Virus record (IMG/VR): IMGVR_UViG_3300027749_000034
DNA: 64,000 nucleotides
Reading direction: 5' to 3' (one strand)
Source: a virus
Taxonomy: Duplodnaviria; Caudoviricetes
Shown: piece by piece, positions 4,224 to 57,344 of the stretch
How the letters are laid out: each line of letters starts with the position of its first letter
Numbering within the stretch: the stretch's first letter is position 1
The notes under the pieces: model-generated
Database searches by the model: none
Seen by the model: the letters and a program-made list of their open reading frames with translations, nothing else
Told to the model about the DNA's origin: nothing
Position numbers and translations under genes: made by a program

Positions 4224-5662
4224 TGAAAAAACTACTAGCTCTTATCGTGATTGCGGCAATATTGCAAGGTTGTGCAACCAGTAGTGCCATCAAGGAAAAA
4301 TTAACCGGCAATCAATTTGACGATCCTACTGTTGAAACTAGTAAATTCTTAAAGAAAAAAGAAAATTCGTTGTTGCCTCCTGCTGGTGGCCCAATTCCTG
4401 TGGCAGTCTACAGTTTCAGCGACAAGACTGGTCAACGCAAAAGTGTTACAGGTATTGCCAGTCTAAGCAGTGCTGTGACACAGGGTGCAGAAAGCTATCT
4501 GATCAAAGCACTACAAGATGCCGGCGATGGCAGATGGTTTATTCCAATTGAGCGAGTTGGTATTGATAACCTAATCAAAGAACGACAGATGATTCGTCAG
4601 GCTAGAGAATTATATCAAGGCAAAGAAGCACAGCCATTGCCTCCGATGGTGTTTGCTGGGATCATCATGGAAGGTGGAATCATTGGATACGACTCAAATA
4701 CATTAACTGGTGGTAGTGGCATGCGTGTATTTGGCATTGGTGCAACCACACAATATCAAAGCGATACTGTAACTGTAAATTTAAGAACTGTCAGTGTCAG
4801 CACCAGTGAAATTTTAACCAGTGTCACTGTGACTAAAACTGTGCTGAGTTACATGGACAAGTTGACGCTGTTGAGATTTGTCAACGATCCGGGCATTGCA
4901 GACCCAGCACTGGCGGCCAGCGCCTTGGCAATAGAAGGTGAAATAGGCGGCAGTATCAATGAAAGTATCAACAAGGCCATTGATGTGGCTGTGCAAGCGG
5001 CAGTGATTGAAACAATACAATCCGGTGCTCGTAAAGGACACTGGGGTTTCAAGCAAGAAAAGAAAGAAGTATCAATGCCTCCGCTACCTGCACATATTGA
5101 AAAGCCTGTTACTATTTCTAAGACTGAAGATGCAATAAGCATAGCACCGGTTCCGTTAAAACCTGTTGTAACACCTGCAACAGAAGTTCCAAAAGAGGAG
5201 AAGAAAGATGTCGTGGTTCAAACACAATCCCCCCAAACACCCGCCACCGTTGGCGAATCCGTCAGTGGCCCACCCGCACCGCTCAAGCCCAGCAACGACC
5301 AAGGCCCTGGAGGAGACAAAGCTGAAAGTAAGAGCACCGTCGACGACAGCAAAAATCAAGACAAAGACCAAAAGGTCAACCTAAAAGAAGATGCAACAAT
5401 ATCAACTGGCATAATTCCAAATACTTCATTGGCCACGCCAATTGCTCCTAGGGCTTTGTTTGGACAAAGGATGTTAAAAGAAGATGTGTTTATCTATGCT
5501 GAGCCCACTATTCAATCTGCAAAAAAATGGTGGTTCAAGAAAGGAACTATTATTAATGTTAGAGCACCAGGTCCAGAAGGGTGGTTAAAAGTGACAGATA
5601 ATGAACTCAGAGGTGGTTGGGTTCATACAGATGTACTAGAGGCAGTTACAGGTGTAAAATAA
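4223..5662 (+). CDS. csgG: Curli secretion channel CsgG-like lipoprotein with Pro-rich linker and C-terminal SH3b-like domain
   Basis: Lipobox LQGC; VAVYSFSDKTGQRK, SSAVTQGA, ERVGIDNLIKERQMIR, EGGIIGYDSN and DTVTVNLRTVSV are CsgG hallmarks; about 200 extra C-terminal residues. Confidence 0.88.
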   Translation: MKKLLALIVIAAILQGCATSSAIKEKLTGNQFDDPTVETSKFLKKKENSLLPPAGGPIPVAVYSFSDKTGQRKSVTGIASLSSAVTQGAESYLIKALQDAGDGRWFIPIERVGIDNLIKERQMIRQARELYQGKEAQPLPPMVFAGIIMEGGIIGYDSNTLTGGSGMRVFGIGATTQYQSDTVTVNLRTVSVSTSEILTSVTVTKTVLSYMDKLTLLRFVNDPGIADPALAASALAIEGEIGGSINESINKAIDVAVQAAVIETIQSGARKGHWGFKQEKKEVSMPPLPAHIEKPVTISKTEDAISIAPVPLKPVVTPATEVPKEEKKDVVVQTQSPQTPATVGESVSGPPAPLKPSNDQGPGGDKAESKSTVDDSKNQDKDQKVNLKEDATISTGIIPNTSLATPIAPRALFGQRMLKEDVFIYAEPTIQSAKKWWFKKGTIINVRAPGPEGWLKVTDNELRGGWVHTDVLEAVTGVK

Positions 5663-5700
5663 TTAACATGTAAAATTATTAACATGTTATATTATTAACA
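5662..5700. repeat. Three imperfect 16-bp-period direct repeats (ATTAACATGT core)
   Basis: ATTAACATGT at 5662 and 5678, ATTAACA at 5694, upstream of the curlin gene promoter. Confidence 0.6.
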
Positions 5701-5729
5701 GCGATATTTAATTTTTATGTCGCTTCGCT

Positions 5730-5735
5730 TAAATA
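5730..5735 (+). promoter_or_regulatory. Late promoter box TAAATA upstream of curlin-like gene
   Basis: Intergenic TAAATA, followed by a GGAG SD before ATG 5778. Confidence 0.5.
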
Positions 5736-5777
5736 GATAGCGTAAATTATGGAGTTTAACTCCAAGGGAGATACATT

Positions 5778-6530
5778 ATGACAAATTATAGAGTTTTGTC
5801 AGGAATTATTCTACTACTAGGGGCAGTAGTTGTTCCAACGAGCTTTGCACAGACTGTTTCAACAGGGCCCAACAAGGTTTATATTGAACAGATCGGTAAC
5901 ACAAATACTATAACCATTGAACAAGTTGGTGGTAGTAACAATGTTGGCGGAACTTCGTCCACAGCGCCGGGTAGCACAAATTACGGAACAATTTTTGGTA
6001 GTGCCAACACACTGGCATTAACACAGACCGGTGATGCCAATAACAGCCAATACAACATTAAAGGTAGTACCAACATATACACCAGTACAGTCACTGGCAA
6101 TACTAACTCATCAAAATTGGTAGTTGGCAACACTACTACGCCATCGTTGCGTAATAACTTGACTGAAACGGTACTTGGCAATGCCAATACATTAGATACC
6201 ACAGTTGTTGCAAATGATGTAATTAGTACCATTGCAATTGCTGGTAATACCAATGAAGTCACATCGGTATTACGAAGCAACAGAGGTGCCAGCGATATTG
6301 ACATTGCTGGCAATAACAATAAACTTGACATTGAACAACTTGATGCCGCAGGTGCCAATGGACACTTATTAAAACAAGTAATTGTTGGCGACTATAACTC
6401 TATTGTTACTCAACAACAGGGTATAAACGACACCACTGTTGATTTGAAAACAACTGGCGATCATAATACTATTACAATTAGAACCAGTAGTACTTCAATT
6501 ACATCTCCTAAAACTGCTGTTGCGAGGTAG
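5778..6530 (+). CDS. Curlin-repeat (CsgA/CsgB-like) secreted protein
   Basis: Signal peptide; N/Q/T/G-rich repeats such as NKVYIEQIGNTNTITIEQVG and QQQGINDTTVDLKTTGDHN. Confidence 0.75.
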   Translation: MTNYRVLSGIILLLGAVVVPTSFAQTVSTGPNKVYIEQIGNTNTITIEQVGGSNNVGGTSSTAPGSTNYGTIFGSANTLALTQTGDANNSQYNIKGSTNIYTSTVTGNTNSSKLVVGNTTTPSLRNNLTETVLGNANTLDTTVVANDVISTIAIAGNTNEVTSVLRSNRGASDIDIAGNNNKLDIEQLDAAGANGHLLKQVIVGDYNSIVTQQQGINDTTVDLKTTGDHNTITIRTSSTSITSPKTAVAR

Positions 6531-6532
6531 GT

Positions 6533-7642
6533 ATGGATGTGTTTGCAAAAGCGATTTTATGCTTTGCTATTTTAAATTCTGCTTGTTACGCAGGACCCAC
6601 CATTGGCACCGTCAGTGAAAATAAAGGCCTGGCCTGTGAGATCCTAAGAGGCAAAACTAAACTTACCGGAGTCAAAGGTTCAGATGTAGAGTCTATGGAC
6701 ACATACACCACTGGCGCATGCAGTAGCAATATTGTATTCCGAGACGATACCAAGGTTAAAATCACTGAAAATTCAAAATTGGTAATTGACGACTTTGTAT
6801 TTGATCCAAAGAATTCTGACGCAGGCAAACTAAGCATCAAGGCCGCAATGGGTACTATTCGCTATGCCAGTGGACAAATTGCCAAGGCAAACCCACAACA
6901 AGTGGCTGTTCAAACTCCTACTGCAAACATTGCTGTTCGCGGAACAGACTTTACAATGACCGTGGATGAAACTGGACAAAGTCTAATTGTACTGGTTCCA
7001 AGTTGTAAAGATGAAAAAGATATCAAACAGTTTGAGCTGGCTGAAAATACCTGCAAGGTTGGGCAAATTGATGTGGTCACAGCAGGCGGCCGTGTCACAT
7101 TGACCAAGGCATTTGAAGCTACCTTTGTTATCAGTGCAAGTGTTTCGCCAACAGCGCCGGTCATCATCAATACAGTGGAAAGTAAACTTACCAATATTTT
7201 AATTATTTCGCATCCACAAGAAATTGGCAAGGCCATTGGTATTGCCACTGGTAGAAGCAAGCGAGAAGAGCTAGAAGCTGAAATTGAAGCGGATGCACAA
7301 AAGCGTCTGGCGCAACGAGTTCGAGAAAATGCTGAACAGATTGAAGAAGCCAGAATTATGATATTATCAGAATCTGCTGTCAAGGCCGGCTGTAACCCGA
7401 CCACTTCAGTTTGTGTCGCATGGGACCGGCCTACTGAGTCAGAAGCTGCCAGCAGAGGTCGTGCCATTGCATTTCGTAACACTGAAAATGAACACTACGC
7501 AGAAGTAAAAACTCAAGGCTATAGTTCGAATACATTTGTAACAATTGTACACAATGATGCCAGCGCCAGTACTCTAATTGGCAGTGGCGAAGCAGGTGCC
7601 ACAACTGTTTATATCAAACAGAATGGCGGTATCAAACGATGA
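6533..7642 (+). CDS. FecR-domain periplasmic protein
   Basis: Signal peptide; IVFRDDTKVKITENSKLVID and TPTANIAVRGTDF are typical FecR-domain motifs. Confidence 0.8.
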   Translation: MDVFAKAILCFAILNSACYAGPTIGTVSENKGLACEILRGKTKLTGVKGSDVESMDTYTTGACSSNIVFRDDTKVKITENSKLVIDDFVFDPKNSDAGKLSIKAAMGTIRYASGQIAKANPQQVAVQTPTANIAVRGTDFTMTVDETGQSLIVLVPSCKDEKDIKQFELAENTCKVGQIDVVTAGGRVTLTKAFEATFVISASVSPTAPVIINTVESKLTNILIISHPQEIGKAIGIATGRSKREELEAEIEADAQKRLAQRVRENAEQIEEARIMILSESAVKAGCNPTTSVCVAWDRPTESEAASRGRAIAFRNTENEHYAEVKTQGYSSNTFVTIVHNDASASTLIGSGEAGATTVYIKQNGGIKR

Positions 7643-8778
7643 AATTTTTAATTGCCATAGCGTTCCTATTGGCCGGCTTTGGTAGCTGTAGTAAAGTACA
7701 GGCCACAGGTTTAGCTGATTTAAAATTTGGCCAGGCGCAAATAGCAGATAGTCAATGGAATGTTCAAGCATGTACACAAACAGCAACTTGTCAAATCTAT
7801 AGTACAAACCCAGGCACCGCATATAAGATTCCCTGGACTAGTGGTCAGATACAATGGGCAACAGGTGACTATATTCAATTCCAACCTTATACAAAAGATG
7901 CAAACAATCCTTGGTTGGCTGTACAATTTGATGCCAACGGTGTTGGTAAAACAAACATGGGTATAGGACATATTATTAACATGGGTACAGACTTTTTCTT
8001 TTTTGTAGGCAGTGATAATAATACTGGACAGTTGTTTAGTATGACCAGTGGATTATCCGGATCTGCTGGAGTGACCTGGACTGGTACATTGAATCCAACT
8101 GATGCTCAGGTTAATGCCTATGCCGCTAACGGATCTACTACTCCACTGGCCGCTGGACAAACTGCTGGACCCCCTCCATTGTGCTGTGGTGCTTCGGCAA
8201 CCGCTGTAATAGTTCAAGATACAAACTTTTACAATAGTGTCAACACCTTTATGAATAGAACTACAAACGATGCACAAATCTATGTAGAGCAAATTGGCAA
8301 TAATAATACCATTGTGATTGAGCAGACTGGTACTGCAAACAACCGAATCAGGTATGACGGTAACGGCAATAACAACAGCATTTCTACAAATCAAAACTCT
8401 ACAAATCCATCTGCTTACAATTTTATAGACTTGGGCGTGAATGGGAATGCCAACGCTGTAAACATTACACAGCAAAGTACTGGTGGTGTCAAGGGTGTGT
8501 TGGCCAGGATCAATGACAACAACAATTCATTGATTGTTCAGCAAAAGGACAGTGGCAACCATTATGCTGATGTTGTCCTCAGTGGTGGCAATAAAAATGT
8601 GGACATACTACAGGAAGGATCAGCCGGTCATGCCGCCCGGGTTGGTCTTACAGGAATGCCTGTTGATTTGAGTCTAACACAAAGCGGTAACGGCTTGGCC
8701 AATCAATCATACAGTATACAGTTTAACTGTGCCACCGCAGGTGGCTGTCCTAAAATTATCGTCCAACAGGGCAGATAA
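7639..8778 (+). CDS. Secreted protein with N-terminal beta-rich domain and C-terminal curlin repeats
   Basis: Signal peptide; QIYVEQIGNNNTIVIEQTG, NNNSISTNQ and NAVNITQQ curlin-type repeats. Confidence 0.7.
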   Translation: MKFLIAIAFLLAGFGSCSKVQATGLADLKFGQAQIADSQWNVQACTQTATCQIYSTNPGTAYKIPWTSGQIQWATGDYIQFQPYTKDANNPWLAVQFDANGVGKTNMGIGHIINMGTDFFFFVGSDNNTGQLFSMTSGLSGSAGVTWTGTLNPTDAQVNAYAANGSTTPLAAGQTAGPPPLCCGASATAVIVQDTNFYNSVNTFMNRTTNDAQIYVEQIGNNNTIVIEQTGTANNRIRYDGNGNNNSISTNQNSTNPSAYNFIDLGVNGNANAVNITQQSTGGVKGVLARINDNNNSLIVQQKDSGNHYADVVLSGGNKNVDILQEGSAGHAARVGLTGMPVDLSLTQSGNGLANQSYSIQFNCATAGGCPKIIVQQGR

Positions 8779-8781
8779 GTA
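8776..8781 (+). promoter_or_regulatory. Late promoter variant TAAGTA, 4 nt before ATG 8786
   Basis: No SD between box and ATG; same spacing as several other sites. Confidence 0.45.
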
Positions 8782-8785
8782 ATGA

Positions 8786-9748
8786 ATGAAGAAATTAATA
8801 CGGATTGAAAGAAATCCAAATCCTCTATTTGTCCATTGGAAGCTGACCGACTTCTGTAATCAAGCCTGTCACTATTGCCCAAGCTTTTTGCATGATGGGC
8901 GATTTGCAAAGGGTATCTTGTCCGGCGCAATGACTGCCACTCAAATTATAAATCTATGTGATCGCTTGCTTGATCTAACTCAGGATAGATCAGGCATTTT
9001 AACCGTCCTGGGAGGGGAGCCAACTGTACATGATATGCTTCCAACTATACTTGAAAAATTAAACAATAATTTTGCAATTGAAATTGTAACCAATGGAAGC
9101 AGAGGATTAAGTTGGTGGAAACAACTCAAAGCATTACCACACAAGGTTGCTATATCATTACATCCAGAGTACTATGATGCTACCCAATTTAGAATCAACG
9201 AGCTAGTGGATTTTCTATTAGAAAACAATGTAGCTGTATGTTTCAATTTGATGTGTGATACTGCTAATTGGAATACTGTAATTGATATCTACAATAGTAT
9301 ACGAGATGAATACAAGTGTTTGACCATTCCAACGATAATTACAGATTACCTGAATCAGGGCACAAGGAAATCAATCAAGTACACTGATGACCAAAATCAA
9401 TTTATGGCATCGTTATTATCAACGCTAAAGTTAAAACCAGTCAGCGGGCATTCTGTTAATACAGCAACCTACAATGATGGATCAACTGAAATTGTAAACG
9501 ATCCAAATCTGATTATAAATTCTAAAAATAATTACTTCAAAGGTTGGTCCTGTAGTGCAGGCAGGGATAGTATATCCGTTGATTTCAATGGTGCTATTAC
9601 CGCAGGAATATGCGGAGCAAAACGGTTAGGAAATGCCGCCACTTTCAAATTGAATACCGAAAATCTAATCTGTCCCAAAGATGTTTGCGCCTGTACCGGT
9701 GATGTGGGTCTGTCAAAGTTTGACTTACACCATGAATCTGTGCTATAA
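8786..9748 (+). CDS. Radical SAM protein with C-terminal SPASM/twitch-like Cys cluster
   Basis: CNQACHYC (CxxxCxxC), GGEPT, VTNGSR; C-terminal C...G..C...CPKDVCAC. Confidence 0.85.
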   Translation: MKKLIRIERNPNPLFVHWKLTDFCNQACHYCPSFLHDGRFAKGILSGAMTATQIINLCDRLLDLTQDRSGILTVLGGEPTVHDMLPTILEKLNNNFAIEIVTNGSRGLSWWKQLKALPHKVAISLHPEYYDATQFRINELVDFLLENNVAVCFNLMCDTANWNTVIDIYNSIRDEYKCLTIPTIITDYLNQGTRKSIKYTDDQNQFMASLLSTLKLKPVSGHSVNTATYNDGSTEIVNDPNLIINSKNNYFKGWSCSAGRDSISVDFNGAITAGICGAKRLGNAATFKLNTENLICPKDVCACTGDVGLSKFDLHHESVL

Positions 9749-9749
9749 T
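9720..9749 (+). promoter_or_regulatory. Sigma70-like promoter for adenylate cyclase
   Basis: TTGACT (9720), 18 nt, TATAAT (9744) with TG extension; GAGG SD before ATG 9768. Confidence 0.5.
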
Positions 9750-9767
9750 ACATACTGAGAGGTGAAT

Positions 9768-11813
9768 ATGAAAAACATTCTTAAAAATATACCTGGTCCA
9801 TTAAGTGTGGTTTGGGTCATTATTACAGCCGCATTGTTGATTTTCTTAAAAATTCAAAATCCTGCGGCAGTTGAAAGTCTACAGTTAAAAGGCTTTGACA
9901 CACTATTGGCCAGTGATGCAGTAGAGACCAGCAATGAAGTGGTTGTTGTGGACATTGGTGAAGCCAGTATGGCTCGGCTGGGACAATGGCCATGGGACCG
10001 ACGAGAAATTGCACAGGCAGTAAATCGCATGCGTGAACTGGGTGCCGCTACTGTTGTTATACCAATTCTAATGACTGAAAAAGACAGACTAAATGGGGAC
10101 AAAGATCTAGCCGAAGCACTGGCCAAGAGTCCCAGTGTTATTGCACAAACTCCAACTACACAAAACAAAAAGCCAGATGCTGTTCGACGAGGCGTTGCAG
10201 TGATTGGTGGCGATCCTTACATTTGGTTGTTCAATTGGCCAGGCGCATTGAGTCCGCGGCCAGAACTGGCGCAAAGTGCTAGAGGTGTTGGTACCACTGT
10301 CACTGCTCCTGAAATTGATGGGGTTGTTCGTCGTATGCCATTGGTTGTCACAGTCAACAAGGAATACTATCCAAGTCTTCCAATCGAAGCACTTCGTGTG
10401 TTTACTGGAGAAAAGAGTTATCAAATGAAGATGACTGATGCTGGCGTAGAGAAAGTTCGCATTGCCGGACAGCCTGTGGTTTCTACTGATGCACAAGGCC
10501 GTGTATGGCTACGCTGGAACCGAGAATTTAAACACTATGAGCTGGGTGACCTGAGTCTTAAAGACATAGATCTAAAAGGAAAGATTGTAGTACTGGGTCT
10601 AACAGTTGAAGGACTTGGAGGCATTGTTGCTACACCACGCGGAGAGACATGGGCACATAATTTACAGGCCACAGCAATACAAACACTCATTGATGGTACA
10701 AGTCCAACTCGTCCAGGTTGGGCCACAATGGCTGAGTTGTTGACAATCATTGCTGTTGCGGCCTTGATCATTTTTGCCATGCCACGAGTACCTGTTTGGT
10801 CTGCATTACTTGTGCTGGGCGGCATTGTATATGTGGTAGTCAAAGGTGGCTTGATATTATGGACAGAGTACAGTCAGCTATGGGATATCTATTATGTTGT
10901 ATTTGCCAGTGTCGTATTATACGGGCATGCTCTGTTTGCTAGATTTGTACAAGAGTTTAAGCAGAAACAACAGATTAAGAAACAGTTTGGCACATACCTA
11001 TCGCCAGCCTTGGTTGCCAAATTACAGAAAAATCCTGAACTGTTACAGCTGGGTGGAGACGAGCGTGAACTAAGTATCATGTTCACTGATGTTCGTGGCT
11101 TCACCACTATCTCCGAGCATTATGGCAAGGATGTACAAGGTCTAACTCGAATCATGAATCGTTACATGACTGCCATGACTGCAAAGATCATTGAGAATAA
11201 CGGAACACTTGACAAGTACATTGGCGATGCTCAGATGGCATTCTGGAATGCACCGCTTGATGAGGAACGTCATGCTCACATGGCAGTAAAGACTGCCTTA
11301 GAGATGATGGAGAGTTTAGATGCATTTAATGCAGAAGTTACAGCAGAAGGCGTACCAGCTTTTGGTATGGGCCTTGGGATTAATAGTGCAAGTGTTGTGG
11401 TGGGTAATATGGGATCTGATCAGCGTTTTGACTATACTTGTCTGGGCGACGGTGTTAACCTGGCATCACGCTTGGAAGGACAGAGTAAGAACTACGGCGT
11501 CAGAATTGTACTTGGTCAACGGACTGCGGAGTTGGTTAAGGACACATACCCGGTGGTAGAACTTGACAACATTGCTGTCAAAGGCAAAACACAAGGCGTT
11601 AAGATTTTCACACTGGGCAACACCAATCGCACATTGCACGATATCTATCTAACTGCATACTATCGCGGCGACTGGGCTCGTGCTATCAAATCATGTGAAA
11701 AGTTAATCAAAGAAAACACTGACATTACACATTATTATGAGAATATGTTGGAGCGAATGAAAGAAGGCCTGCCTGCTGAATGGGACGGCACTTACAGAGC
11801 CACAAGCAAATGA
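9768..11813 (+). CDS. CHASE2-domain membrane adenylate cyclase (class III)
   Basis: N-terminal TM; CHASE2 motifs (VVVDIGEAS, GQWPWDR, DGVVRRMPL); three TM segments; catalytic FTDVRGFT, DKYIGDA and GDGVNLASRLE, with Lys and Thr at ATP-specifying positions. Confidence 0.92.
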   Translation: MKNILKNIPGPLSVVWVIITAALLIFLKIQNPAAVESLQLKGFDTLLASDAVETSNEVVVVDIGEASMARLGQWPWDRREIAQAVNRMRELGAATVVIPILMTEKDRLNGDKDLAEALAKSPSVIAQTPTTQNKKPDAVRRGVAVIGGDPYIWLFNWPGALSPRPELAQSARGVGTTVTAPEIDGVVRRMPLVVTVNKEYYPSLPIEALRVFTGEKSYQMKMTDAGVEKVRIAGQPVVSTDAQGRVWLRWNREFKHYELGDLSLKDIDLKGKIVVLGLTVEGLGGIVATPRGETWAHNLQATAIQTLIDGTSPTRPGWATMAELLTIIAVAALIIFAMPRVPVWSALLVLGGIVYVVVKGGLILWTEYSQLWDIYYVVFASVVLYGHALFARFVQEFKQKQQIKKQFGTYLSPALVAKLQKNPELLQLGGDERELSIMFTDVRGFTTISEHYGKDVQGLTRIMNRYMTAMTAKIIENNGTLDKYIGDAQMAFWNAPLDEERHAHMAVKTALEMMESLDAFNAEVTAEGVPAFGMGLGINSASVVVGNMGSDQRFDYTCLGDGVNLASRLEGQSKNYGVRIVLGQRTAELVKDTYPVVELDNIAVKGKTQGVKIFTLGNTNRTLHDIYLTAYYRGDWARAIKSCEKLIKENTDITHYYENMLERMKEGLPAEWDGTYRATSK

Positions 11814-12514: not shown

Positions 12515-13207
12515 ATGGGCCAGTCCGAAGAATTTTAGTATTGTAATATACATCCATCCCGCATCAAATTCCCACCAACGAAGACTCAGTCTAGGGTTAG
12601 CAGGATCCAAATGATGGTTATTATGCAGGCATTCCCCACCAACAACAATATCCCAAGGAACAATGTTTCTACTGTGATCTTTAGTTTCGCCATTTCTATA
12701 TCCCCACCAATGTCCAATGCCGTTAATGACGCCGGCCGCCCAGAAAGGTATCCAGAGCATCTGAACACCCCAGATTAACACACCCCACCAGCCAAATATC
12801 ACTGTGTTGAGCACAAAGAGAATGCCAATGCCAAGTCTACTGTGAGGAGTGTATATGTTGTGCTCCATCCAATCAGAAGGAGTACCAACACCGTATGTAT
12901 CAACCATATCTTTATCTTTTGATGCTTCATGGTATAGTCCTGCTCCTCGAAAAAATACCTGTCCAATTCCATACACATGTGGACTATGCGGGTCACCGTC
13001 TTGTTCGGTGAATCTATGATGTTTGCGGTGTACAGCTACCCATTGCTTGGTGACCATGCCTGTGGTCAACCATAATATGGCTCGCATGAAATGTGCTACC
13101 GCAGGATTGAATGTGACTGATCTATGTGCTTGACTGCGGTGAAGATATAGTGTTACACAGGCTATGGTGATGTGTGTCATCACCAGTGTATATATTAGTG
13201 CTGTCAT
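12503..13207 (-). CDS. Acyl-lipid/acyl-CoA delta-9 fatty acid desaturase
   Basis: Three His boxes HRSQAH, HRKHH and HNNHH; TM segments; WWEFDAGW tail typical of DesC/OLE1. Confidence 0.92.
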   Translation of the reverse strand: MTALIYTLVMTHITIACVTLYLHRSQAHRSVTFNPAVAHFMRAILWLTTGMVTKQWVAVHRKHHRFTEQDGDPHSPHVYGIGQVFFRGAGLYHEASKDKDMVDTYGVGTPSDWMEHNIYTPHSRLGIGILFVLNTVIFGWWGVLIWGVQMLWIPFWAAGVINGIGHWWGYRNGETKDHSRNIVPWDIVVGGECLHNNHHLDPANPRLSLRWWEFDAGWMYITILKFFGLAHLRT

Positions 13208-13518
13208 TAATCTTTGACCGCTTCTTTGAATTTCTTTTCTGCTTCAAGGTCAACTTTATGTGCTTCCATTACACGATCACCTTCAATGATTTTGCCACGC
13301 AGGTGCAGGGTTGTGTTGACCTTTTGAGTTAGTCTAATTAAATCATTGTCCAGCATACGCACACGATCTATTAGCGCAATTAATGTGGTGTTGGCTTCGC
13401 TCAACACTGGTTTAATTTCCGTTGTGGCCCATTGCCACACATAGTAAATTAGATATCCCATGCCGCCAGCGGCAACTATAGGAAATCCATACTTGTTAAT
13501 TAATTCTGCTACATCCAT
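13207..13518 (-). CDS. Small membrane protein, paralog of 14078..14359
   Basis: GGAG SD; GFPIVAAG TM segment followed by coiled coil DRVRMLDNDLIRL. Confidence 0.6.
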   Translation of the reverse strand: MDVAELINKYGFPIVAAGGMGYLIYYVWQWATTEIKPVLSEANTTLIALIDRVRMLDNDLIRLTQKVNTTLHLRGKIIEGDRVMEAHKVDLEAEKKFKEAVKD

Positions 13519-13519
13519 T

Positions 13520-13939
13520 TTATACTCCAATTAAATGATCTTCTTCATGATCAACACGGGGGCAAACATGTGACCATGTCAATAAAAATTCCAGCAATTC
13601 TGGTCCTTCTGGAATCCAGAATCTTGTGCGATTTAAATGGGCTTCAAATTGAATCTTGTTGGTTTTAATCCAACGAATTACTTCAACAAATTCCGCATCT
13701 CTTGTATATACTGCAAATTGATATGACTTATCAGAATTATATACAACTTCTCGGGCACCGTCTAATACAAAAGCAGTCAATGGATCTACTTTGATCAGGG
13801 CTTTCTTGCCATTGCGGTCAACAACTTTCCAGTGGTCGCCTACTTGCCAGCCCAGTTTGTCAGTGTCTAACTCTGGGTCTGGCAACATGTAGTTTGGGTT
13901 TAAATCCCAGTTGTAGTCATAGTACAGCATTAGAAACAA
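13520..13939 (-). CDS. Hypothetical protein with C-terminal FW...FLLTWS motif (small Trp-rich family member)
   Basis: ORF track; ends RFWIPEGPELLEFLLTWS, similar to the 33-35 kb family. Confidence 0.55.
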   Translation of the reverse strand: MFLMLYYDYNWDLNPNYMLPDPELDTDKLGWQVGDHWKVVDRNGKKALIKVDPLTAFVLDGAREVVYNSDKSYQFAVYTRDAEFVEVIRWIKTNKIQFEAHLNRTRFWIPEGPELLEFLLTWSHVCPRVDHEEDHLIGV

Positions 13940-14076
13940 AGTCCTATTAGTAAACCAACAATGAAGGCACCAATTACAGCACCAACCATTTCATTATGTT
14001 TCCAAATTGGTTGATTTCTCAAGTAGTCTTGCGTGTCGGCCGGCAAGCTATCAAACCAAGATTCCCATTTTCCCAT
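13930..14076 (-). CDS. Small protein with C-terminal TM helix
   Basis: MGKWESWF...GAVIGAFIVGLLIGLCF; start placed immediately after the upstream stop. Confidence 0.5.
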   Translation of the reverse strand: MGKWESWFDSLPADTQDYLRNQPIWKHNEMVGAVIGAFIVGLLIGLCF

Positions 14077-14077
14077 T

Positions 14078-14359
14078 TTAGTCTCTTCTAGCATCGTTCT
14101 TGCCGTCTGCTCTGGCAATACGGTCCACATCAGGACTGAGTCCCAATGCATTTGATACTATTGTGTCAATACGAATAACATCGTGATTCATTGTCTTAAC
14201 ACGATTGTCTAGCGCACCAATGATGCCCTTTAATCCATTCACACTGGAAGTCACACCGGCTAAGATGAACTTGAGTGTTAAAAATACAAAGTAGCCGCCG
14301 GCCATTGCCGCGGCAATTGGAAAGCCAACTTCAGCTACTAATTTGAAAAATTCACCCAT
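14078..14359 (-). CDS. Small membrane protein, paralog of 13207..13518
   Basis: GFPIAAAMAGGYF TM segment, then LDNRVKTMNHDVIRID. Confidence 0.6.
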   Translation of the reverse strand: MGEFFKLVAEVGFPIAAAMAGGYFVFLTLKFILAGVTSSVNGLKGIIGALDNRVKTMNHDVIRIDTIVSNALGLSPDVDRIARADGKNDARRD

Positions 14360-14390: not shown

Positions 14391-14463
14391 AAACTCATTA
14401 TAAAAACATTAACAGCTACGATTATGATAAGTAATATGAGTGACTATAATTATCCAAAACCCA

Positions 14464-14469
14464 TAAATA
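14464..14469 (+). promoter_or_regulatory. Late promoter TAAATA, 5 nt before ATG 14475
   Basis: CATAAATACACCTATG; no SD. Confidence 0.6.
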
Positions 14470-14474: not shown

Positions 14475-15419
14475 ATGAAACTACGAGATATCTTACAAAT
14501 ACACGAAGATGATGGAGGCGGTGCTTCTGCCGGAGCAACCACGTCTGCAGATATCGCAGGTGTGGCTTATCCGCTGTTTGTTCGTGGACGCACACGCAAA
14601 GACAAGCGAAAGAATGCCAGAGCCGCAGTGGGACAGAAATATAACGCAGGACCAGCAGGTGTTGGTACTGGTGTATATGAAGATGAAGTAGGTGAAGCGC
14701 ACACATTAAACAGCGACAGCGTTATCTATCGTTTAGATACAGAGCATCCAATGAGTGACACTGAGGTGGCTGTGTTGGGTGGTGCAGGCCGTTATACCTT
14801 GGCCGGACTCAGAGACAAAGCTCGTCGAGAAGCTAAAACACTCAGTGATGATTTAACTTCAGATCATGGTGGCAGCTTTCGTGGTGCCGCGCACAATATC
14901 AAACAATTGACAAATACATTAAATACCATTGTTGCCGCTTACAATGAATTAAAAAGAATTCGTTCCAAAGGTGGTCGTGGCAGTAGAGGAATCACAGACG
15001 AAGACAAAAACTTTGTTAGAGAATGTTTGACCACATTAGAAAATTACAGTAAAATAGTTGACCGTGCCATCAAAATCAGCAGTAGGGTTGACGAAGCAAT
15101 GAAGAACGGTAAAATGCACAGCAATCATGCAGGATCAATTCGCGGCATGTATCATTTAAACACTGATCCAGCTTATGGTTTTTATCGTTGGGCCATACAT
15201 GTGGCAGGAAATAAAGGCGGTGATAGTATTTCATTGGGACCTAATGCTGGTCCATTTGCCTATGCCTACACTGAAGAAGAAGGCGAAATGATTAGAAAAG
15301 CAGTCAAAGCTGTTACTGGAAAGAACGCAACTGAAATGACTGGTGGCAAGAGTACCGAGCCAGCTGACACAAATAAAAAAAGTACAATGCCAACAATAGA
15401 TTGGAAAAAGGTAAAATAA
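14475..15419 (+). CDS. Probable internal head protein
   Basis: CTS-like start MKLRDILQIHE; internal VYE, VGE and VDE sites; late promoter. Confidence 0.5.
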   Translation: MKLRDILQIHEDDGGGASAGATTSADIAGVAYPLFVRGRTRKDKRKNARAAVGQKYNAGPAGVGTGVYEDEVGEAHTLNSDSVIYRLDTEHPMSDTEVAVLGGAGRYTLAGLRDKARREAKTLSDDLTSDHGGSFRGAAHNIKQLTNTLNTIVAAYNELKRIRSKGGRGSRGITDEDKNFVRECLTTLENYSKIVDRAIKISSRVDEAMKNGKMHSNHAGSIRGMYHLNTDPAYGFYRWAIHVAGNKGGDSISLGPNAGPFAYAYTEEEGEMIRKAVKAVTGKNATEMTGGKSTEPADTNKKSTMPTIDWKKVK

Positions 15420-15420
15420 A

Positions 15421-18400
15421 ATGATTCGTATTCAACTAATACACCAAGGCCGCGTTGTAAAAACAATTAGTAGCCGAGTACATGAAAGTGTAATTCTCGA
15501 GCAGGTCAAGAGATATGACCAACCCGTTGACGAAATTCGCATTGTCAATGGCGAATTAAGTGAGGCCGGCAAGGGTATTTTACAACATGTTGCTAAAAAG
15601 ATTATTCCAGCCGCATTGGCCGCTGGTATGGCCATGAGTGGCGCCAATATGGCACACGCACAAAACCACGGTTCACCGGGACAGAATAGAGATTTTCCTG
15701 GCATGGAACTGAGCATTGGTCAACACCTGGCTACAATATTTGCGCCCAACTATCAAGAAATTATGCGCCAACGCAATTATGAATTACAAACACAGCGCGA
15801 AGTATGGAATGCAGAACAAGCTGAAATTCGTCGCGCCAGAGTTGAACAGGCTCGTGCTCAAGGTCGTGCTGAAATGGGTCTGCCACCTGCGGGCCAAAAC
15901 GCAAATATGCATGTGTATGATCAAGCTCGTACCAGCAGTGATGGCAAGTATTTCATCATCTACGGCATGGACAACAGTATCACAAAAATTCCAGTACAGG
16001 GCACAGAATTCATGCCCGGAGACAGTCAGCGTCTGCCACATTACATTGCACCAAGCGGTCGAGTATTTTATGTTCGACATCCTGCAGGCACCATGACAGA
16101 AAGCATCATCAGTGAAGGCACATGGGCATTGCCAGACAGTCCAGAAGCAGTGGATGAATTGACTGCATTGATGCAACAACCATTGGCGGCCAGCTTTGCC
16201 GCTGATAAATTATATAGCCTAGTTGGCGACGATCATTTATTTGATTTAATTGCCGGCATGAAAGAACAAAATCCAGGACAGAATATTTGGAAAAATCCAG
16301 CTGTAGCAAAAAGATTTTATGAGCTGGGTATTGAAATGAATGTTGCAGAAGGCTTTGGTACAATTGGTACCATTCCTGCCAGTGGCACAGGTGGTCGTGG
16401 ACAAAGTCCAAGCGGACATGCTGAGCCAATGTCCGACGATGAAGATGAAATGAATTTATCACCAGGATCAGCACAGGACAATCAAGTGCCACAGACAGGC
16501 ACTCAGCAAACAGGCAAGTCAACTACCTTGCACATTGATCAAAACGGAAATCTAGCCCTGGGCGATGAAGAAGATCCTAAGAACTTGCGCGAGTCCACAG
16601 ATGATTTAGTTAATATTATCATGGGGCACCAAGCTGATGTTAAAAAGTACACAGGTGGCAATGGTAGTAACATGAGCTCGGCATTGTCACAGGAATTGCA
16701 AGCTTATTATAATACGAATGACTTTGCCAAACAATTTGATTCAGATCTGGCCGCTATTTTCAAAGCCGCAGATCAGCATGCACCAGCACAAGAAAGCATA
16801 AATGAAATGACCGAAGCTGGATTAAAAGCAATCTTAGATCAGTACGCTGATTCGTTTGCCAAGTTCAAAGCCGGTGGTGAAATCGATGACAATGTGGATT
16901 TTTATGAAGCATTGTACAGTTACTATTCAGACGCTGGCGAAATGCCGTATGGTACACAAAAGGCCCGTGATGGAGATCCAGTGCAATGGATAGCTGACCG
17001 ACTAGATGCCGAAACTGGTATGATGCCAGTGGCTGAAGAAAACATAAACGAAGGTGCAGAATTTGGTGCTTACTACAGCGAACAACTGGCACAGAAAGTA
17101 TTTGATCAGAATCCCAACTTATCATGTGAAGGCAAGTGTGAAGAATTATTAGATGCGGCTTGGCCTATTGCTGTAGCCGATCTAGGCCGTAAGCGAGCAC
17201 AATATGAATTCGGTTACAATGAAGATTTTCCTTCGGATTTTGTAAGTGCATATATTCATTTACAAAAACAAAGTCAGGGTGTAACAGAAGGCCAATTAAA
17301 TGAATTCAACAGTAGTGTTTATGTTGTAAACTACATTGACAACGATTCAGGCGAAGAAAAACAACTTAAAATTGGTGCTTATAGTGCCGACGACGCCAAA
17401 GCCAAAGCATTAGCAAAATTAAGAGCCAATGGCATTGATGCATCTGTTACAGGTACCACTGGCGGAGAAACCGACACCGGAGACAATGGTGCAAGAGAGT
17501 GGAAACAGGTAATGCTTAGAAAGTTTGCTCATGACCAATTGAAAACTGAGTATGAGTGGGCGGCGCAGTATGATGTGTTCATGACCAAAGAACAAATATT
17601 AGAGTATATAGATGTACAAGCAACAGATAAAAAATTAACACCATTGGAATTCATGCATAACAATGGTTACGAGCAAGAAAATCTTTTTAAAGGATTTTTA
17701 AACAGATTAATAAAAGCAGGATTCAGTAAACAAATGCTGTTGTCAATGTGGAAAAGTTTCCGTAAAACTGGTAGTGTTGGTAATGTTGGGCCTGGTACAA
17801 CCAGTGCAATGGCAACGGCATTATTAAAAAATAAACTTGGCGAGACTGCAAATATCACCGAAGAAGATGAAGAAGGCAACTACGGTTACGACATTAAATC
17901 TGAATACATGGGCAATAGAGATTTTGAGTTGTTGATACAGAATATGAGAAAGCCCGGTTCAAAGCCAGTGCAGGTATTTTTAAGAGTGTTGGGCGTTGGC
18001 GAGTGGAGCCTTAGCCAATATTCGCTAGACAGCTTCCAGCTGAAAGGTGGTGTCAAACCAGTCGGCATTCAAAATGGTGTAAACGGTAACCATCCAATGT
18101 ATCAGGCCATTTTTAATCACTTTGATTTGGATACAAAAATGTGGAAATTCCTAGGAGAAATTTATCGTCATGATTCTGTGCAATACGACAGGGACGAAGA
18201 TTATCAAGCCGCTGGATGGCCAGGTGTGCCTATGCCCCCACAACTGCAAGCAACTGATGCTGGAGAATACATTGACAAGCATAATGATGCTGAAGATCAA
18301 ACCCAAGCCGCTATCAGTGCCGCTATGAGTGCATCTAAACGCAAGCCTGCAACTGAAGCATTTACCATACAAAGAGGCGATAAGTTTTTGGTAGGTGGCA

Positions 18401-18882
18401 ACTCTTGGGTCAGCCGAGAAAAAGTAGAGCAACAAAAGGCTCTGTTATATCGCCACAAGTCAATGGCACAGCAGGTGCTGAACAAAATTGGTAAACCTGG
18501 TGACAAAGTTGTAATGATTGAAAATGAAGAAGAAGCTAGTCCAGAAGAGCAAGGTGCCGCTGATAAAAACATCATTATGCAAATTCGTAAAGTAGCTGAT
18601 TATGAACGACCATCGCCAGTGACATTGGGTGATGGTGAATCAATCACCATTGATGCAGATACAGCTAGAACAATCCTGGCCAAGTTTGACACATTAAAGC
18701 CAGACAGCAAGGCATTGATGCAACAGACATTGAACACCAGCGAAGGATTTCATGAATTATTAAATTACTTCAACAAGCGCAAAGTGCATGAAGATGTAGA
18801 ACTAATAAGTACAGCAATGAAACCAGTCATGGAAGCAGACGCACGAGCCAAGCGACTAATGAAAAAAGTTTTTGGTATTTAA
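15421..18882 (+). CDS. Large modular acidic protein, probable prohead-protease-processed internal head polyprotein
   Basis: Many [ILVM]xE followed by A/S/G/D/E junctions (LSEA, MTES, ISEG, VAEG, LRES, INEMTEA, VAEENINEG, VTEGQLNE, ITEE, VHED, VMEA) separating short domains. Confidence 0.55.
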   Translation: MIRIQLIHQGRVVKTISSRVHESVILEQVKRYDQPVDEIRIVNGELSEAGKGILQHVAKKIIPAALAAGMAMSGANMAHAQNHGSPGQNRDFPGMELSIGQHLATIFAPNYQEIMRQRNYELQTQREVWNAEQAEIRRARVEQARAQGRAEMGLPPAGQNANMHVYDQARTSSDGKYFIIYGMDNSITKIPVQGTEFMPGDSQRLPHYIAPSGRVFYVRHPAGTMTESIISEGTWALPDSPEAVDELTALMQQPLAASFAADKLYSLVGDDHLFDLIAGMKEQNPGQNIWKNPAVAKRFYELGIEMNVAEGFGTIGTIPASGTGGRGQSPSGHAEPMSDDEDEMNLSPGSAQDNQVPQTGTQQTGKSTTLHIDQNGNLALGDEEDPKNLRESTDDLVNIIMGHQADVKKYTGGNGSNMSSALSQELQAYYNTNDFAKQFDSDLAAIFKAADQHAPAQESINEMTEAGLKAILDQYADSFAKFKAGGEIDDNVDFYEALYSYYSDAGEMPYGTQKARDGDPVQWIADRLDAETGMMPVAEENINEGAEFGAYYSEQLAQKVFDQNPNLSCEGKCEELLDAAWPIAVADLGRKRAQYEFGYNEDFPSDFVSAYIHLQKQSQGVTEGQLNEFNSSVYVVNYIDNDSGEEKQLKIGAYSADDAKAKALAKLRANGIDASVTGTTGGETDTGDNGAREWKQVMLRKFAHDQLKTEYEWAAQYDVFMTKEQILEYIDVQATDKKLTPLEFMHNNGYEQENLFKGFLNRLIKAGFSKQMLLSMWKSFRKTGSVGNVGPGTTSAMATALLKNKLGETANITEEDEEGNYGYDIKSEYMGNRDFELLIQNMRKPGSKPVQVFLRVLGVGEWSLSQYSLDSFQLKGGVKPVGIQNGVNGNHPMYQAIFNHFDLDTKMWKFLGEIYRHDSVQYDRDEDYQAAGWPGVPMPPQLQATDAGEYIDKHNDAEDQTQAAISAAMSASKRKPATEAFTIQRGDKFLVGGNSWVSREKVEQQKALLYRHKSMAQQVLNKIGKPGDKVVMIENEEEASPEEQGAADKNIIMQIRKVADYERPSPVTLGDGESITIDADTARTILAKFDTLKPDSKALMQQTLNTSEGFHELLNYFNKRKVHEDVELISTAMKPVMEADARAKRLMKKVFGI

Positions 18883-18883
18883 A

Positions 18884-20935
18884 ATGAAATTCTTCAGTGA
18901 AATTAAAAATCGAGTAAACGAAGCACCTCACTATCCAGAGGATCCGGATGAATGGAATGCCATGTTTGGTGCCCGTAAAAAGAAACCACAGGGTGATCCA
19001 GAAGATTATGAACCACGCACCTCTCCTGCTCAACAGGCGGCCGACGACGAAGAAGCTTTGAGTCAAAAGCTTCAGGCACAGCACAAGGCATTTGCACAAA
19101 AGCGCAAGGTTGAGTATGTTGATCAAGAAGGTGCCGCACCCAATGGGCAACGATACAATAAACTGTATGTGATCAATGCCAAGGACATGCAGACTGCCAA
19201 CCATGAAGAATATCTGTTTGACAAGCACGAGTGGGGTGCAAAGAAAGTGGTTGATGTTAAAAAACAACAAAATGAAGATGGTTCCGTAACTGCTACCTTG
19301 TACATTGTGGACAATCACAAGTATGGTACTTGGAAGCCATGGAAAAATATGCCGGCAAAAGAAGGCGTCAGTGCAGATACGCTGGAAGAAAGCGAAGAAG
19401 ACAATCCGGTACTGGGTGCCATCATTCATCGTATCATGGTTGGCCGTACAGATCTGTTGAGCAAGTTTGGTCCCGAGCGTATCATGGCCGCTGCCGAAGA
19501 TGTTGCAGACTTCGTTGGTGATGTGGAAGAAATTGGTAGCAGTGATGTCAGTGGCTGGGTCAAACAAGTTGAGAACAGTTTAAAAGATGCACAGTTGCCA
19601 GATGATGAACAGGAGAAAGTTACTGAGGCGCCATTCGGCCCAGAGAAAGATTTCCGTGCGGCAGCATTAAAGAAATACCCTGATGCCAAATTTAGAAGGA
19701 CGCAAGATTCAAGCAGGGACCTTACAGCATACAAACCCACTCCAAAACCTGCAGGGCATGTAAATGCAGTGCATGGTAAGCACTGGGGCAAAGAAGTCGG
19801 ATCGCGCAATGGATACATAGGGTTGTGGGATGTAAAGGAAGAACAGGAAGCAGATATGAAATCAAGTAACACAGGTTACAACAATATGTTGGCTGTTATG
19901 AAAGCAGTTGACGCAGGTGAAGATGCCACTTTCAATCTAGGTGGCGAACCCATCACGCTTGAATATCCAGAAGCTCGCTTCTTGTCAGGCAAATACAAAG
20001 CTTTCTTGAAAGCAGGTCGCCAAGAAGAATTTTTGCAGTACATGAGCAGTCCTGTGGCATTTGATCGTCTAATGCTACAGTTGCGTCATATGATCGACAA
20101 GCAAAAGAATTTTAAAGGTAGTGTGCCTGGTGAACGCGGTGTTGAGGAAGACGCAAGAACTTTTGCACCATTGAGTAAAGATCAATATTTGGCTCAAAAG
20201 AAGGCACTACAGGATATACAACTTGATCCGGAAACAGCAAACGATCCTGAACTTAGAAAAGAATTAATGCATAGGACTGGCGCATTGCGAAAGCAAGCAG
20301 TAGCATCTGGACTTATTGGAGTAGAAGAAGACGCTCCTGCCTTGGCCAAAATGGCAGGTGGACTTGGTCTAGGCCTTGTAGCGGCCGCAGGTGCGCCAGC
20401 CATTGTTGGCATCTTGGGCCCGTTGCTGGGTATTCCGTTTGCCGCTTACGGTGCTTACAGCGCGGCCAAAATGGGCATGGCAGGTGTTGAAAAACTATGG
20501 GACATGGCCACAGACAAACTGGGCGGGTCTGACAAAGTTGAACAGTATGCTACAGCTCAGATTGCCAAGTTGCCTCCAGAAAAAGCCAAAGCCGCCAATG
20601 CTGTGATTAAACAAGTGGCCGAAAGCAGAAAGACTGTAGAAAGCACTGGGCCGGCAAAAATGATTAGTCGTGGCGGCAAAGACATGGACGAAAGTGCTCC
20701 ACCAAACTTTCCAATGGATTTAGAAAAGAAGCTGTTGGCACAATATAAAAATGATCCAGGCCGGGCTTATGCAACAATGTGGACTTTACACAACAAACAA
20801 AAGCCCAAGACAGAAAGCCTAAAAGCGTTGCCAGCAGTAAATGAAAACGAATACTGGTGTGGCAACGGCAGAATGGCCAAACCAATCCCAACAGGATACA
20901 AGAAGTTATCCAATGGATACCTAACAAGGAAATAA
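18884..20935 (+). CDS. Modular probable internal head polyprotein with hydrophobic segment
   Basis: Start MKFFSEIKNRVNEA; junctions LEES, VTEA, VKEE, GVEEDA (twice), VAES, VNEN; Gly/Ala-rich TM-like stretch. Confidence 0.55.
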   Translation: MKFFSEIKNRVNEAPHYPEDPDEWNAMFGARKKKPQGDPEDYEPRTSPAQQAADDEEALSQKLQAQHKAFAQKRKVEYVDQEGAAPNGQRYNKLYVINAKDMQTANHEEYLFDKHEWGAKKVVDVKKQQNEDGSVTATLYIVDNHKYGTWKPWKNMPAKEGVSADTLEESEEDNPVLGAIIHRIMVGRTDLLSKFGPERIMAAAEDVADFVGDVEEIGSSDVSGWVKQVENSLKDAQLPDDEQEKVTEAPFGPEKDFRAAALKKYPDAKFRRTQDSSRDLTAYKPTPKPAGHVNAVHGKHWGKEVGSRNGYIGLWDVKEEQEADMKSSNTGYNNMLAVMKAVDAGEDATFNLGGEPITLEYPEARFLSGKYKAFLKAGRQEEFLQYMSSPVAFDRLMLQLRHMIDKQKNFKGSVPGERGVEEDARTFAPLSKDQYLAQKKALQDIQLDPETANDPELRKELMHRTGALRKQAVASGLIGVEEDAPALAKMAGGLGLGLVAAAGAPAIVGILGPLLGIPFAAYGAYSAAKMGMAGVEKLWDMATDKLGGSDKVEQYATAQIAKLPPEKAKAANAVIKQVAESRKTVESTGPAKMISRGGKDMDESAPPNFPMDLEKKLLAQYKNDPGRAYATMWTLHNKQKPKTESLKALPAVNENEYWCGNGRMAKPIPTGYKKLSNGYLTRK

Positions 20936-20936: not shown

Positions 20937-21554
20937 ATGGAAATCACAGTAGAAATTTTACAAGCTTGTATACCACAAGCCAAGGCCGCAAGACTAGAAA
21001 TGTTTTGTGAAGGATTCAATGAAACCTTTGAACACTTTGATATTAGCAATCCGGCTCGTATGGCCATGTTTCTTGCACAGACTGCACATGAAAGCGGAAA
21101 CTTTAATGCAGTAGAAGAAAACTTGAATTATGCCGCCAAAGCATTGATGGCATTTTGGCCCAAGCGTTTTGCTGGTGTAGCAGATGCGTATGCTCGTAAA
21201 CCAGAAATGATTGCCAATCGTGCCTACTGTGATCGTATGGGCAATGGCAACGAAGCGTCAGGCGAAGGCTACATGTACCGCGGTCGTGGCATTATTCAAT
21301 TGACTGGCAAAGAAAATTATACCAAATGCGGCGACGCACTGGGCTTGGATCTAGTAAGCGATCCTGATCAAGTGGCACAGAATCCAGTGGCTATTCTGTC
21401 AGCAGGTTGGTTTTGGGATACTAGAAAACTAAATGCTGTCAGCGATACAGGTGATGTAGAACGAGCAACCAAGTTGATCAACGGTGGCACAATTGGCCTC
21501 AAAGAGCGAGGCGAACACTTCCATCACATATTGCAAGTATTGCAATCAATCTAA
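20937..21554 (+). CDS. Glycoside hydrolase family 19 endolysin (chitinase-like lysozyme)
   Basis: FLAQTAHES, YRGRGIIQLTGKENY, AGWFW and TKLINGG motifs. Confidence 0.92.
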   Translation: MEITVEILQACIPQAKAARLEMFCEGFNETFEHFDISNPARMAMFLAQTAHESGNFNAVEENLNYAAKALMAFWPKRFAGVADAYARKPEMIANRAYCDRMGNGNEASGEGYMYRGRGIIQLTGKENYTKCGDALGLDLVSDPDQVAQNPVAILSAGWFWDTRKLNAVSDTGDVERATKLINGGTIGLKERGEHFHHILQVLQSI

Positions 21555-56866: not shown

Positions 56867-56888
56867 CGTCGGTAACTTCTCTGCATCC

Positions 56889-56896
56889 TATAAATA
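56889..56896 (+). promoter_or_regulatory. Perfect T4 late promoter TATAAATA, 5 nt before ATG 56902
   Basis: Exact T4 consensus. Confidence 0.7.
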
Positions 56897-56901
56897 TCAA
56901 C

Positions 56902-57336: not shown

Positions 57337-57344
57337 GCAATAAG

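Follow-up and report, generated by a model that had tools for sequence, protein, structure and literature searches.

Putative phage-head cargo polyproteins built from shuffled modules in an uncultured freshwater T4-like jumbo phage

The internal proteins of phage T4 are the textbook example of proteins delivered with phage DNA, one per targeting tag, and apart from their capsid targeting sequence (CTS) they are mutually unrelated. The first ten residues of T4 IPIII suffice for packaging; within the CTS, targeting depends on residues 4 and 7 and processing on residues 8 and 10; and gp21, which acts in the T4 prohead, cuts after Glu (PMC9026906). Head-internal proteins of the giant phages phiKZ, 201phi2-1 and SPN3US are likewise cut after Glu, at multiple sites, by the gp21-related gp175/gp245, and the products are ejected (PMC10052503, PMC9026906), while in the polyvalent proteins of phages and conjugative elements many effector-like domains are combined in one chain of highly variable architecture, for which packaging and delivery along with the DNA are predicted (Iyer et al. 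2017, PMC5512222). Here, we describe three adjacent plus-strand genes, A (14475-15419, 314 amino acids (aa)), B (15421-18882, 1153 aa) and C (18884-20935, 683 aa), in a 64,000-nucleotide (nt) stretch of DNA from a virus of the Caudoviricetes (IMG/VR record IMGVR_UViG_3300027749_000034; the whole stretch is referred to as the window, and positions without a prefix are window positions). The starts of all three genes were fixed by comparison with relatives. An earlier reading of the letters of this stretch (the original prediction) had proposed that the three open reading frames (ORFs), whose presence and lengths proved correct, are late genes for polyproteins cut by a prohead protease into small packaged effectors. 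Taken together, the evidence is best explained if the products of A, B and C are head cargo made in polyprotein form, which we consider probable, and packaging and cleavage of the three products are, on balance, likely. They would represent a new variant of the T4 CTS/internal-protein system, with many cargo modules per tag.

As the original prediction had claimed, two of the three proteins start with CTS-like leaders, MKLRDILQIHE/D in A and MKFFSEIKNRVNE/A in C (a slash within a sequence follows the Glu of a junction), and both leaders are conserved in relatives, with the patterns MK[LF]R[ED][LI]..E/ in A-type and MKFF[QS]EI...NE/A in C-type proteins. The corresponding T4 leaders, read from NC_000866, are MKTYQEFIAE/A in IPIII and IPII and MKTFKEF...ITE/A in IPI; the leaders of A and C follow the T4 pattern of M-K-x-aromatic-x-E-hydrophobic, 10-19 aa long and closed by hydrophobic-x-Glu ahead of a small residue. 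Such a short N-terminal leader, ending in hydrophobic-x-Glu/Ala, is one likeness to T4 IPI, IPII, IPIII and Alt. Cleavage after Glu by a Peptidase_S77 enzyme, which relatives encode, would be another: G001 (285 kb) and G002, two IMG/VR genomes with the same gene cluster, carry a Peptidase_S77 (gp21) gene (PF03420, 90 bits against a cut-off of 27; the G001 product, encoded in L024, has 213 aa), a gp23 capsid protein gene (PF07068, 323 bits) and a gp22-like scaffold gene whose product is dense in the same hydrophobic-x-Glu sites. In both systems the genes are late and lie outside the head block beside an endolysin gene, the T4 genes ipIII and ipII adjoining gene e (e-ipIII-ipII) as A-B-C adjoin a glycoside hydrolase family 19 (GH19) gene, and in both the cargo set is hypervariable between related phages (PMC3012670, PMC9026906). 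The differences are that T4 has one cargo per leader and gene, whereas here up to about nine modules follow one leader, with internal copies of the site; that the site would serve here both as a processing signal and as a shuffling joint; that the third residue before the junction (P3) is mostly Val; that B has a prodomain of 48 aa; and that some of the cargo has Sec- or Tat-type starts. No homology to IPI, IPII, IPIII or Alt was found in Pfam, PHROG, NCBIfam or tblastn searches of phage records.

The modular architecture of B was defined by BLAST against 64 metagenomic homologs, which divided the protein into eight modules. M1 (residues 1-232), common to all B-type proteins, comprises a prodomain, a signal-like segment and a mature part. 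The prodomain (15421..15564, plus strand; residues 1-48) is a small beta-beta-alpha-beta unit ending in an invariant LSE/A, S47 and E48 being invariant and L46 nearly invariant in the alignment, and the mature part (15661..16116, plus strand; residues 81-232) consists of a long helix and a beta domain and ends in ISE/G. Positions 16117..17304 (plus strand) encode M2 (residues 233-310, ending VAE/G), M3 (311-465, INE/MTE/A), M4 (466-544, VAE/ENINE/G) and M5 (545-628, VTE/GQLNE/F), and positions 17305..18522 (plus strand) encode M6 (629-814, ITE/E) and M7 (815-1034, MIE/N). M8 (18523..18882, plus strand; residues 1035-1153, followed by the stop) is the conserved C-terminal module of all B-type proteins. 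M6 and M7 together form a 410-aa insert missing from the closest relatives, which lack precisely residues 624-1033; in P0005, P0007, P0008 and P0009, about residue 623 is joined straight to about residue 1034. M7 is common only to the window's B and P0006, M5 directly follows M1 in P0038 and P0048, and M4 is found near residue 1000 in P0050 and P0054. Whichever module comes next, the B borders consist of hydrophobic-x-Glu followed by Gly, Ala, Ser or Asp.

Genes A and C are built in a similar way. In A, the leader (residues 1-11, ending IHE/D) is followed by a basic Gly/Ala-rich N-module, the junction VYE/DEVGE/A (residues 67-74; 14673-14696, plus strand) and a C-module. The leader of C (residues 1-13, ending VNE/A) precedes seven borders, at residues 169 (LEE/S), 248 (VTE/A), 319 (VKE/E), 422 (VEE/D), 482 (VEE/D), 580 (VAE/S) and 654 (VNE/N), and a conserved 29-aa C-terminal tail. 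These borders were mapped against 117 of the more than 200 C-type homologs, and the ends of the alignments (high-scoring segment pairs, HSPs) pile up at 169, 235-248, 319, 422, 482, 580 and 654. As a separate observation, the sequence IP.GYKK..NG..T.K is conserved after the last junction of C-type proteins (window 20846-20932 and the C-terminus of L019:14092-15843), and B-type proteins end in a conserved ...SVFGK; both may be C-terminal signals, and T4 Alt is processed at both ends (PMC9026906).

Shuffling of modules among related phages, which had been suggested as a check, was found throughout the family (64 B-type and more than 200 C-type homologs, from lake and other metagenomes), in which modules are reordered, lost, duplicated and inserted. 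Modules are also exchanged among A-, B- and C-type genes, one A-type module of L007 being 63% identical to part of a C-type protein of L001, and protein lengths in relatives range from 287 to 757 aa for A, from 233 to 1493 aa for B and from 204 to 1178 aa for C. Within the G001 genome, modules were found nowhere outside the A-B-C cluster except in one small ORF, and the B prodomain (residues 1-50), compared with all G001 ORFs, matched only the B homolog.

The association of module borders with the junction motif was assessed by a motif-blind approach, in which an all-against-all BLAST of 112 cluster proteins yielded 432 break-point peaks in 111 of them. [ILVM]xE lies within 4 aa of 52% of the 432 peaks, compared with 14% for random positions (at most 20% over 200 trials). 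Related sequences are among those counted and the events are therefore not independent; the control motifs [ILVM]xD, [ILVM]xK and [ILVM]xQ share this bias yet stay flat at 5-15%. The raw HSP ends gave the same picture (34% near [ILVM]xE versus 13%), while [AGS]xE shows no more than a weak association with break-points (17% versus 12%). A sequence logo of 167 distinct junctions, all of which have V, I, M or L at P3 by construction, revealed G/P/S at P4, V (101) or I (33), followed by M and L, at P3, a small residue at P2, E at P1 and A/G/S in 77% at P1'. The abrupt change of sequence character that had been noted at the junctions is supported by these homology break-points and by an AlphaFold model of B residues 225-640.

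The leaders and all of the junction strings listed in the original prediction are present. About 18 junction positions fall on borders of modules or on the ends of conserved leaders, both defined independently of the motif (in A, residues 11 and 69/74; in B, 48, 232, 310, 462/465, 539/544, 623/628, 814 and 1034; in C, 13 and the seven borders given above), and the remaining [ILV]xE occurrences lie inside modules and look incidental. The proposed enrichment of [ILV]xE over composition shuffles did not hold: A has 5 occurrences versus 2.8 expected (z = 1.5), B 20 versus 14.8 (z = 1.4) and C 9 versus 9.1 (z = -0.05), and ordinary enzymes and other window genes score like A, B and C. The stricter motif [VILM]xE[AGS] is enriched in A, B and C together (17 versus 7.8 expected, p about 0.002) and in B alone (10 versus 4.2, p about 0.01), compared with 56 versus 45 in the other ORFs of the window. 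On counts alone, the cut-site finding would be weak.

A lineage represented by four contigs from different samples (L019-L022) offers a natural experiment on the junctions, as it carries B as a series of separate coupled genes whose boundaries are the module borders. M1 alone (233 aa) is the product of the first gene; the second starts with MKNMRQLINAVMVTE, followed by GTWALP, the first residues of M2; and the third starts with MNMRKLINIVE/ADP and continues with the start of M3. A module that becomes its own gene hence gains a short leader ending in the junction motif. Such leaders are predicted if the motif is part of a targeting-plus-processing signal, and not if it is a passive linker.

Further evidence comes from what stands directly behind the junctions. 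In the C homolog of L005, VAE/GSLEE/ is followed immediately by a predicted twin-arginine translocation (Tat) signal (TIGR01409 at 24.2 bits, cut-off 16.7; Pfam TAT_signal at 21.7, slightly below the cut-off of 22.7), which occupies residues 158-185 of an 876-aa protein and would be N-terminal only after a cut. In 11 proteins, a Sec-like module GWK[DE]KL..AALAG...A.A/R, in which the final slash marks the end of the signal-like segment, begins after LNE/ or LDE/. The window's B contains a segment resembling a Sec-type signal peptide (15565..15660, plus strand; residues 49-80) with a Lys-Lys n-region, an Ala/Gly/Met-rich h-region and AHA/Q at its end. It follows the invariant LSE/A in every B-type protein and would be exposed only if LSE/A is cut; PAA.AAG within it is invariant across 18 divergent homologs. 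All of the Sec-like segments, including this one, were judged by pattern only. Because of their position inside the chain, internal Tat and Sec signals make sense only if the junction is cut. In C, a transmembrane-hairpin module (20330..20623, plus strand; residues 483-580, with hydrophobic segments at 486-524) stands right after VEE/D, and the same module is present in B-type proteins of at least eight relatives (L004, L006, L009, L010, L018, P0025, P0053 and P0055).

Structure models are consistent with a chain of small domains. The AlphaFold model of M1, built from an 18-sequence alignment (mean predicted local distance difference test (pLDDT) score 69), shows the prodomain at residues 1-43 (pLDDT about 80), a hydrophobic helix, a disordered stretch, a long helix and a beta domain; Foldseek returned no match for it in the PDB and weak, inconsistent rows from the AFDB clusters. 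In the model of B residues 225-640 (mean pLDDT 54), helical domains with pLDDT of 70-87 correspond to the folded part of M3, M4 and M5, with M2 at about 50, and all five junctions fall in segments of pLDDT below 50 between helical domains. Taken alone, this coincidence is suggestive, about half of the residues being below 50.

In the mechanism that we propose, A, B and C would be made late from one operon, and a short N-terminal leader would bring each chain as a whole into the scaffolding core while the prohead assembles; this leader is T4-CTS-like in A and C and the 48-residue prodomain in B. The activated gp21-type protease would cut after Glu at hydrophobic-x-Glu/Ala, Gly or Ser, both at the leader end and in every inter-module linker, and would release roughly 15-18 proteins of about 7-25 kDa and a few shorter ones, which would stay in the head and exit with the DNA at the next infection. 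With one code for leader and linker, modules could be gained, lost and swapped by recombination while packaging is kept. A Sec or Tat signal or a membrane hairpin would then stand at the N-terminus of several freed pieces, so that part of the cargo would probably be directed to the periplasm or inner membrane of the new host. A bolder form of this idea, which we regard as tentative and on present evidence rather doubtful, is that the cut of the head protease acts as an unmasking step: internal segments would become N-terminal Sec or Tat signals, the injected proteins would use the export apparatus of the new host to reach its periplasm and inner membrane ahead of phage gene expression, and the linker would double as a universal in-frame joint for trading modules across a clade of freshwater jumbo phages.

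If the proposed mechanism is correct, one tag would suffice to bring in a dozen or more proteins, in a set that can change, and the evolution of the cargo could use the head protease site as a plug-and-play joint as well. The mechanism would account for long late genes annotated as 'hypothetical', which make up a large class in uncultured jumbo phages; virion cargo could be predicted from sequence by a simple rule; and nature would offer a model for packing several foreign proteins into capsids of the T4 type. Where signal peptides stand behind cut sites, injected proteins would in addition have a new route, ending in the host envelope.

Several observations weigh against packaging and cleavage. 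B has no CTS-like leader, the 48-aa prodomain standing in its place; P3 of the junctions is mostly Val, while the T4 sites that were read have Ile; and the gp21-type protease is known from relatives, not from the window's own genome. The loose motif is no more frequent in A, B and C than composition predicts, which is the outcome that the original prediction itself had named as speaking against it, and the break-point statistics carry the non-independence described above. No relative of A, B or C was detected by megablast or tblastn among 50,697 cultured-phage records, and we know of no precedent for signal peptides on proteins injected into the cytoplasm. Finally, QGVAEG is encoded by an identical 18-nt word, CAAGGTGTGGCGGAAGGC, at a minimum of eight (at least 8) different junctions in four phages, and this word shared among relatives implies that part of the junction conservation may reflect recombination rather than selection by a protease. 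That word, together with the lack of enrichment of the loose motif in the window, is what would be expected if the proteins were uncut, ordinary multi-domain proteins whose shared linker is a recombination joint (micro-homology) for module swaps. This we consider quite unlikely: no DNA word is repeated at the junctions within the window, where the junctions differ in codons and residues (ISE, VAE, INE, VTE, VEE and LEE) yet keep hydrophobic-x-Glu, which argues that the constraint is at least partly on the protein; internal Tat and Sec signals would be useless without cleavage; and the split genes gain leaders ending in the same motif.

Cleavage at the junctions could also take place outside capsids, in the producing cell, where a protease of the phage or the host would act in the cytoplasm or at the membrane; the pieces would be exported by Sec or Tat and act late on the envelope of that cell (lysis control, superinfection exclusion or envelope remodelling). 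The signal peptides and the membrane hairpin behind the junctions would fit such a role, as would the GH19 lysozyme-like gene that closes the operon, the putative small membrane-protein genes just upstream on the other strand and the other exported proteins encoded in the same window. We nevertheless judge it unlikely, because the leaders resemble the T4 capsid targeting sequence and the junction code fits the Glu-specific gp21 family of the relatives, which in T4 acts in the prohead (PMC9026906), and because no other candidate protease of such specificity was seen in the cluster; as T4 ipIII and ipII also lie beside the endolysin gene e, the endolysin neighbourhood is no argument against packaging. 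Very unlikely, in our view, is that the proteins are packaged and cut but serve as scaffold or core material like T4 gp22, gp67 and gp68, with the pieces being expelled or filling the head instead of being delivered as effectors. Here the conserved end modules (M1, M8 and the C tail) behave like structural constants, and the gp22-like scaffold of the relatives is full of the same sites; the middle modules, however, turn over fast and lengths vary widely (the B and C ranges given above), the T4 core proteins are described as conserved (PMC9026906), and the modules are predicted to be folded domains of 8-25 kDa, some with export signals.

With regard to the 18-nt word, copies of CAAGGTGTGGCGGAAGGC were located in L001, L005, L008 and L014 (for example L014:12739, 12919, 4971 and 5178), and two of the copies in L014 lie in genes upstream of the A-B-C cluster. 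The window has a single diverged copy, CAGGGTGTAACAGAAGGC, which encodes QGVTEG.

The anti-defence or takeover function put forward in the original prediction gained no support, as no Pfam, PHROG, NCBIfam, PDB or fold match was obtained. No family of Pfam, PHROG or NCBIfam matched A, B, C or nine larger relatives, the Tat signal aside; PDB sequence searches were empty for B and C; and an ESM Atlas feature search with B residues 83-232 gave no usable match. The only functional clues, the Sec/Tat-like signals and the transmembrane hairpin, point to the host envelope. In the literature searched, there was no description of prohead-protease-cut polyproteins or of signal-bearing injected head proteins.

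Several established protein classes were considered and set aside. A tape measure sets tail length, so that close relatives have tape measures of similar size, and each genome has a single such gene, in the tail block. This reading was rejected on the lengths of B and C, which vary over their full ranges among relatives with the same neighbours, and the position of the A-B-C cluster about 95 kb from the head block in G001 also counts against it; tail fibre and holin were dismissed in view of the architecture and the variable lengths. Picornavirus-type polyproteins offer an analogy, in that a viral protease, cutting at a short consensus, separates the functional units of a single translation product, although they belong to another virus realm, use another protease and carry replication and capsid proteins, whereas A, B and C would carry accessory cargo and would be cut inside a preformed capsid. 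In phiKZ, cleavage is specific for Ala/Ser/Gly-x-Glu, the giant-phage type of motif, as opposed to Val/Ile-x-Glu here. The cleavage motif of SPN3US is A-X-E, and in the giant phages the extra cuts lie in long N-terminal propeptides, which are removed to leave one mature protein (PMC10052503), whereas here each piece between sites is an independent exchangeable domain. A processed head protein of the phiKZ/SPN3US type does not fit A, B and C, given the weak association of [AGS]xE with break-points (17% versus 12%) and the lack of homologs in phage records. Polyvalent proteins differ in having recognisable enzyme domains and, in the cases for which processing has been proposed, in relying on their own zincin-like peptidase domain for it (PMC5512222); A, B and C have no known domain and would be cut by the head protease at a standard linker. 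Membership in that class, marked by several conflict-related enzyme domains in one chain such as MPTase, ART, ParB-like and helicase, was rejected, since Pfam-A gave no domain other than the Tat signal in A, B, C or the nine larger relatives.

A, B and C form a coupled operon behind a T4-type late box, in agreement with the earlier claim that they are late genes, which is based here on the motif alone. The late-promoter-like box ATAAATA (14462..14468, plus strand) stands 6 nt ahead of the ATG of A and is kept 5-6 nt before this ATG in the window and nearly all relatives; its position fits a T4-type late promoter, and the mRNA would probably be almost leaderless. The canonical TATAAATA was not found upstream of A, where the shorter ATAAATA is present instead. 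B, C and the GH19 gene are each joined to the preceding gene by a TAAAATG stop/start coupling. The GH19 lysozyme-like gene (20937..21554, plus strand) matches the endolysin family phrog_181 (E = 3e-79), and Pfam Glyco_hydro_19 was matched in syntenic genes of relatives; we treat it as a neighbour and make no claim that it belongs to the A-B-C system. Elsewhere in the window, ATAAATA late boxes were noted at 56191, 56890 and 63297 in addition to 14462, an ATG lies 5-6 nt downstream of 4 of the 7 ATAAATA copies, and TAAGTA/TACATA variants precede 8786, 22639 and 36581 as well as 30118 and 63258 on the minus strand. Boxes of the (T)AAATA type placed 4-6 nt ahead of an ATG leave no space for a Shine-Dalgarno sequence, which suggests leaderless late mRNAs.

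The source appears to be an uncultured freshwater T4-like jumbo phage. A 293-kb contig carries a copy of C identical to that of the window, contigs carrying relatives measure 200-332 kb, and the window encodes a T4-type DNA polymerase (phrog_262) and a CHASE2 cyclase sharing 41% identity with its counterpart in the T4-like phages Melnitz and HTVC008M. Leaders of a similar kind were also observed outside the three genes. A 496-aa protein of the function-unknown family phrog_3560 (2171-3661, plus strand) starts with MLFREIFIAE/AG; the last four leader residues are identical to those of the T4 CTS, which ends in FIAE/A, and the protein is a candidate for packaging. In G001 (L027-L041), minus-strand ORFs with MK[FI]x[DE]-type leaders are located at 54162-54791, 56668-59805, 229786-230631, 231255-233576 and 239580-240068, among them one for a 1045-aa protein with several hydrophobic-x-Glu/small sites near its N-terminus, and the leader-plus-junction design may reach beyond the A-B-C cluster in this genome. 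Four small minus-strand genes (13207-14359) diverge from A; at least two of their products have hydrophobic N-terminal segments, their syntenic relatives match DUF4337 and DUF1353, and they could be membrane or lysis-related proteins. Further upstream, positions 3744-11813 (plus strand) hold a run of genes with signal-peptide or lipoprotein-box starts, followed by the CHASE2 adenylate/guanylate cyclase, together a module of exported proteins and a cyclase encoded by the phage; FecR matches and faint matches to curlin repeats occur in relatives.

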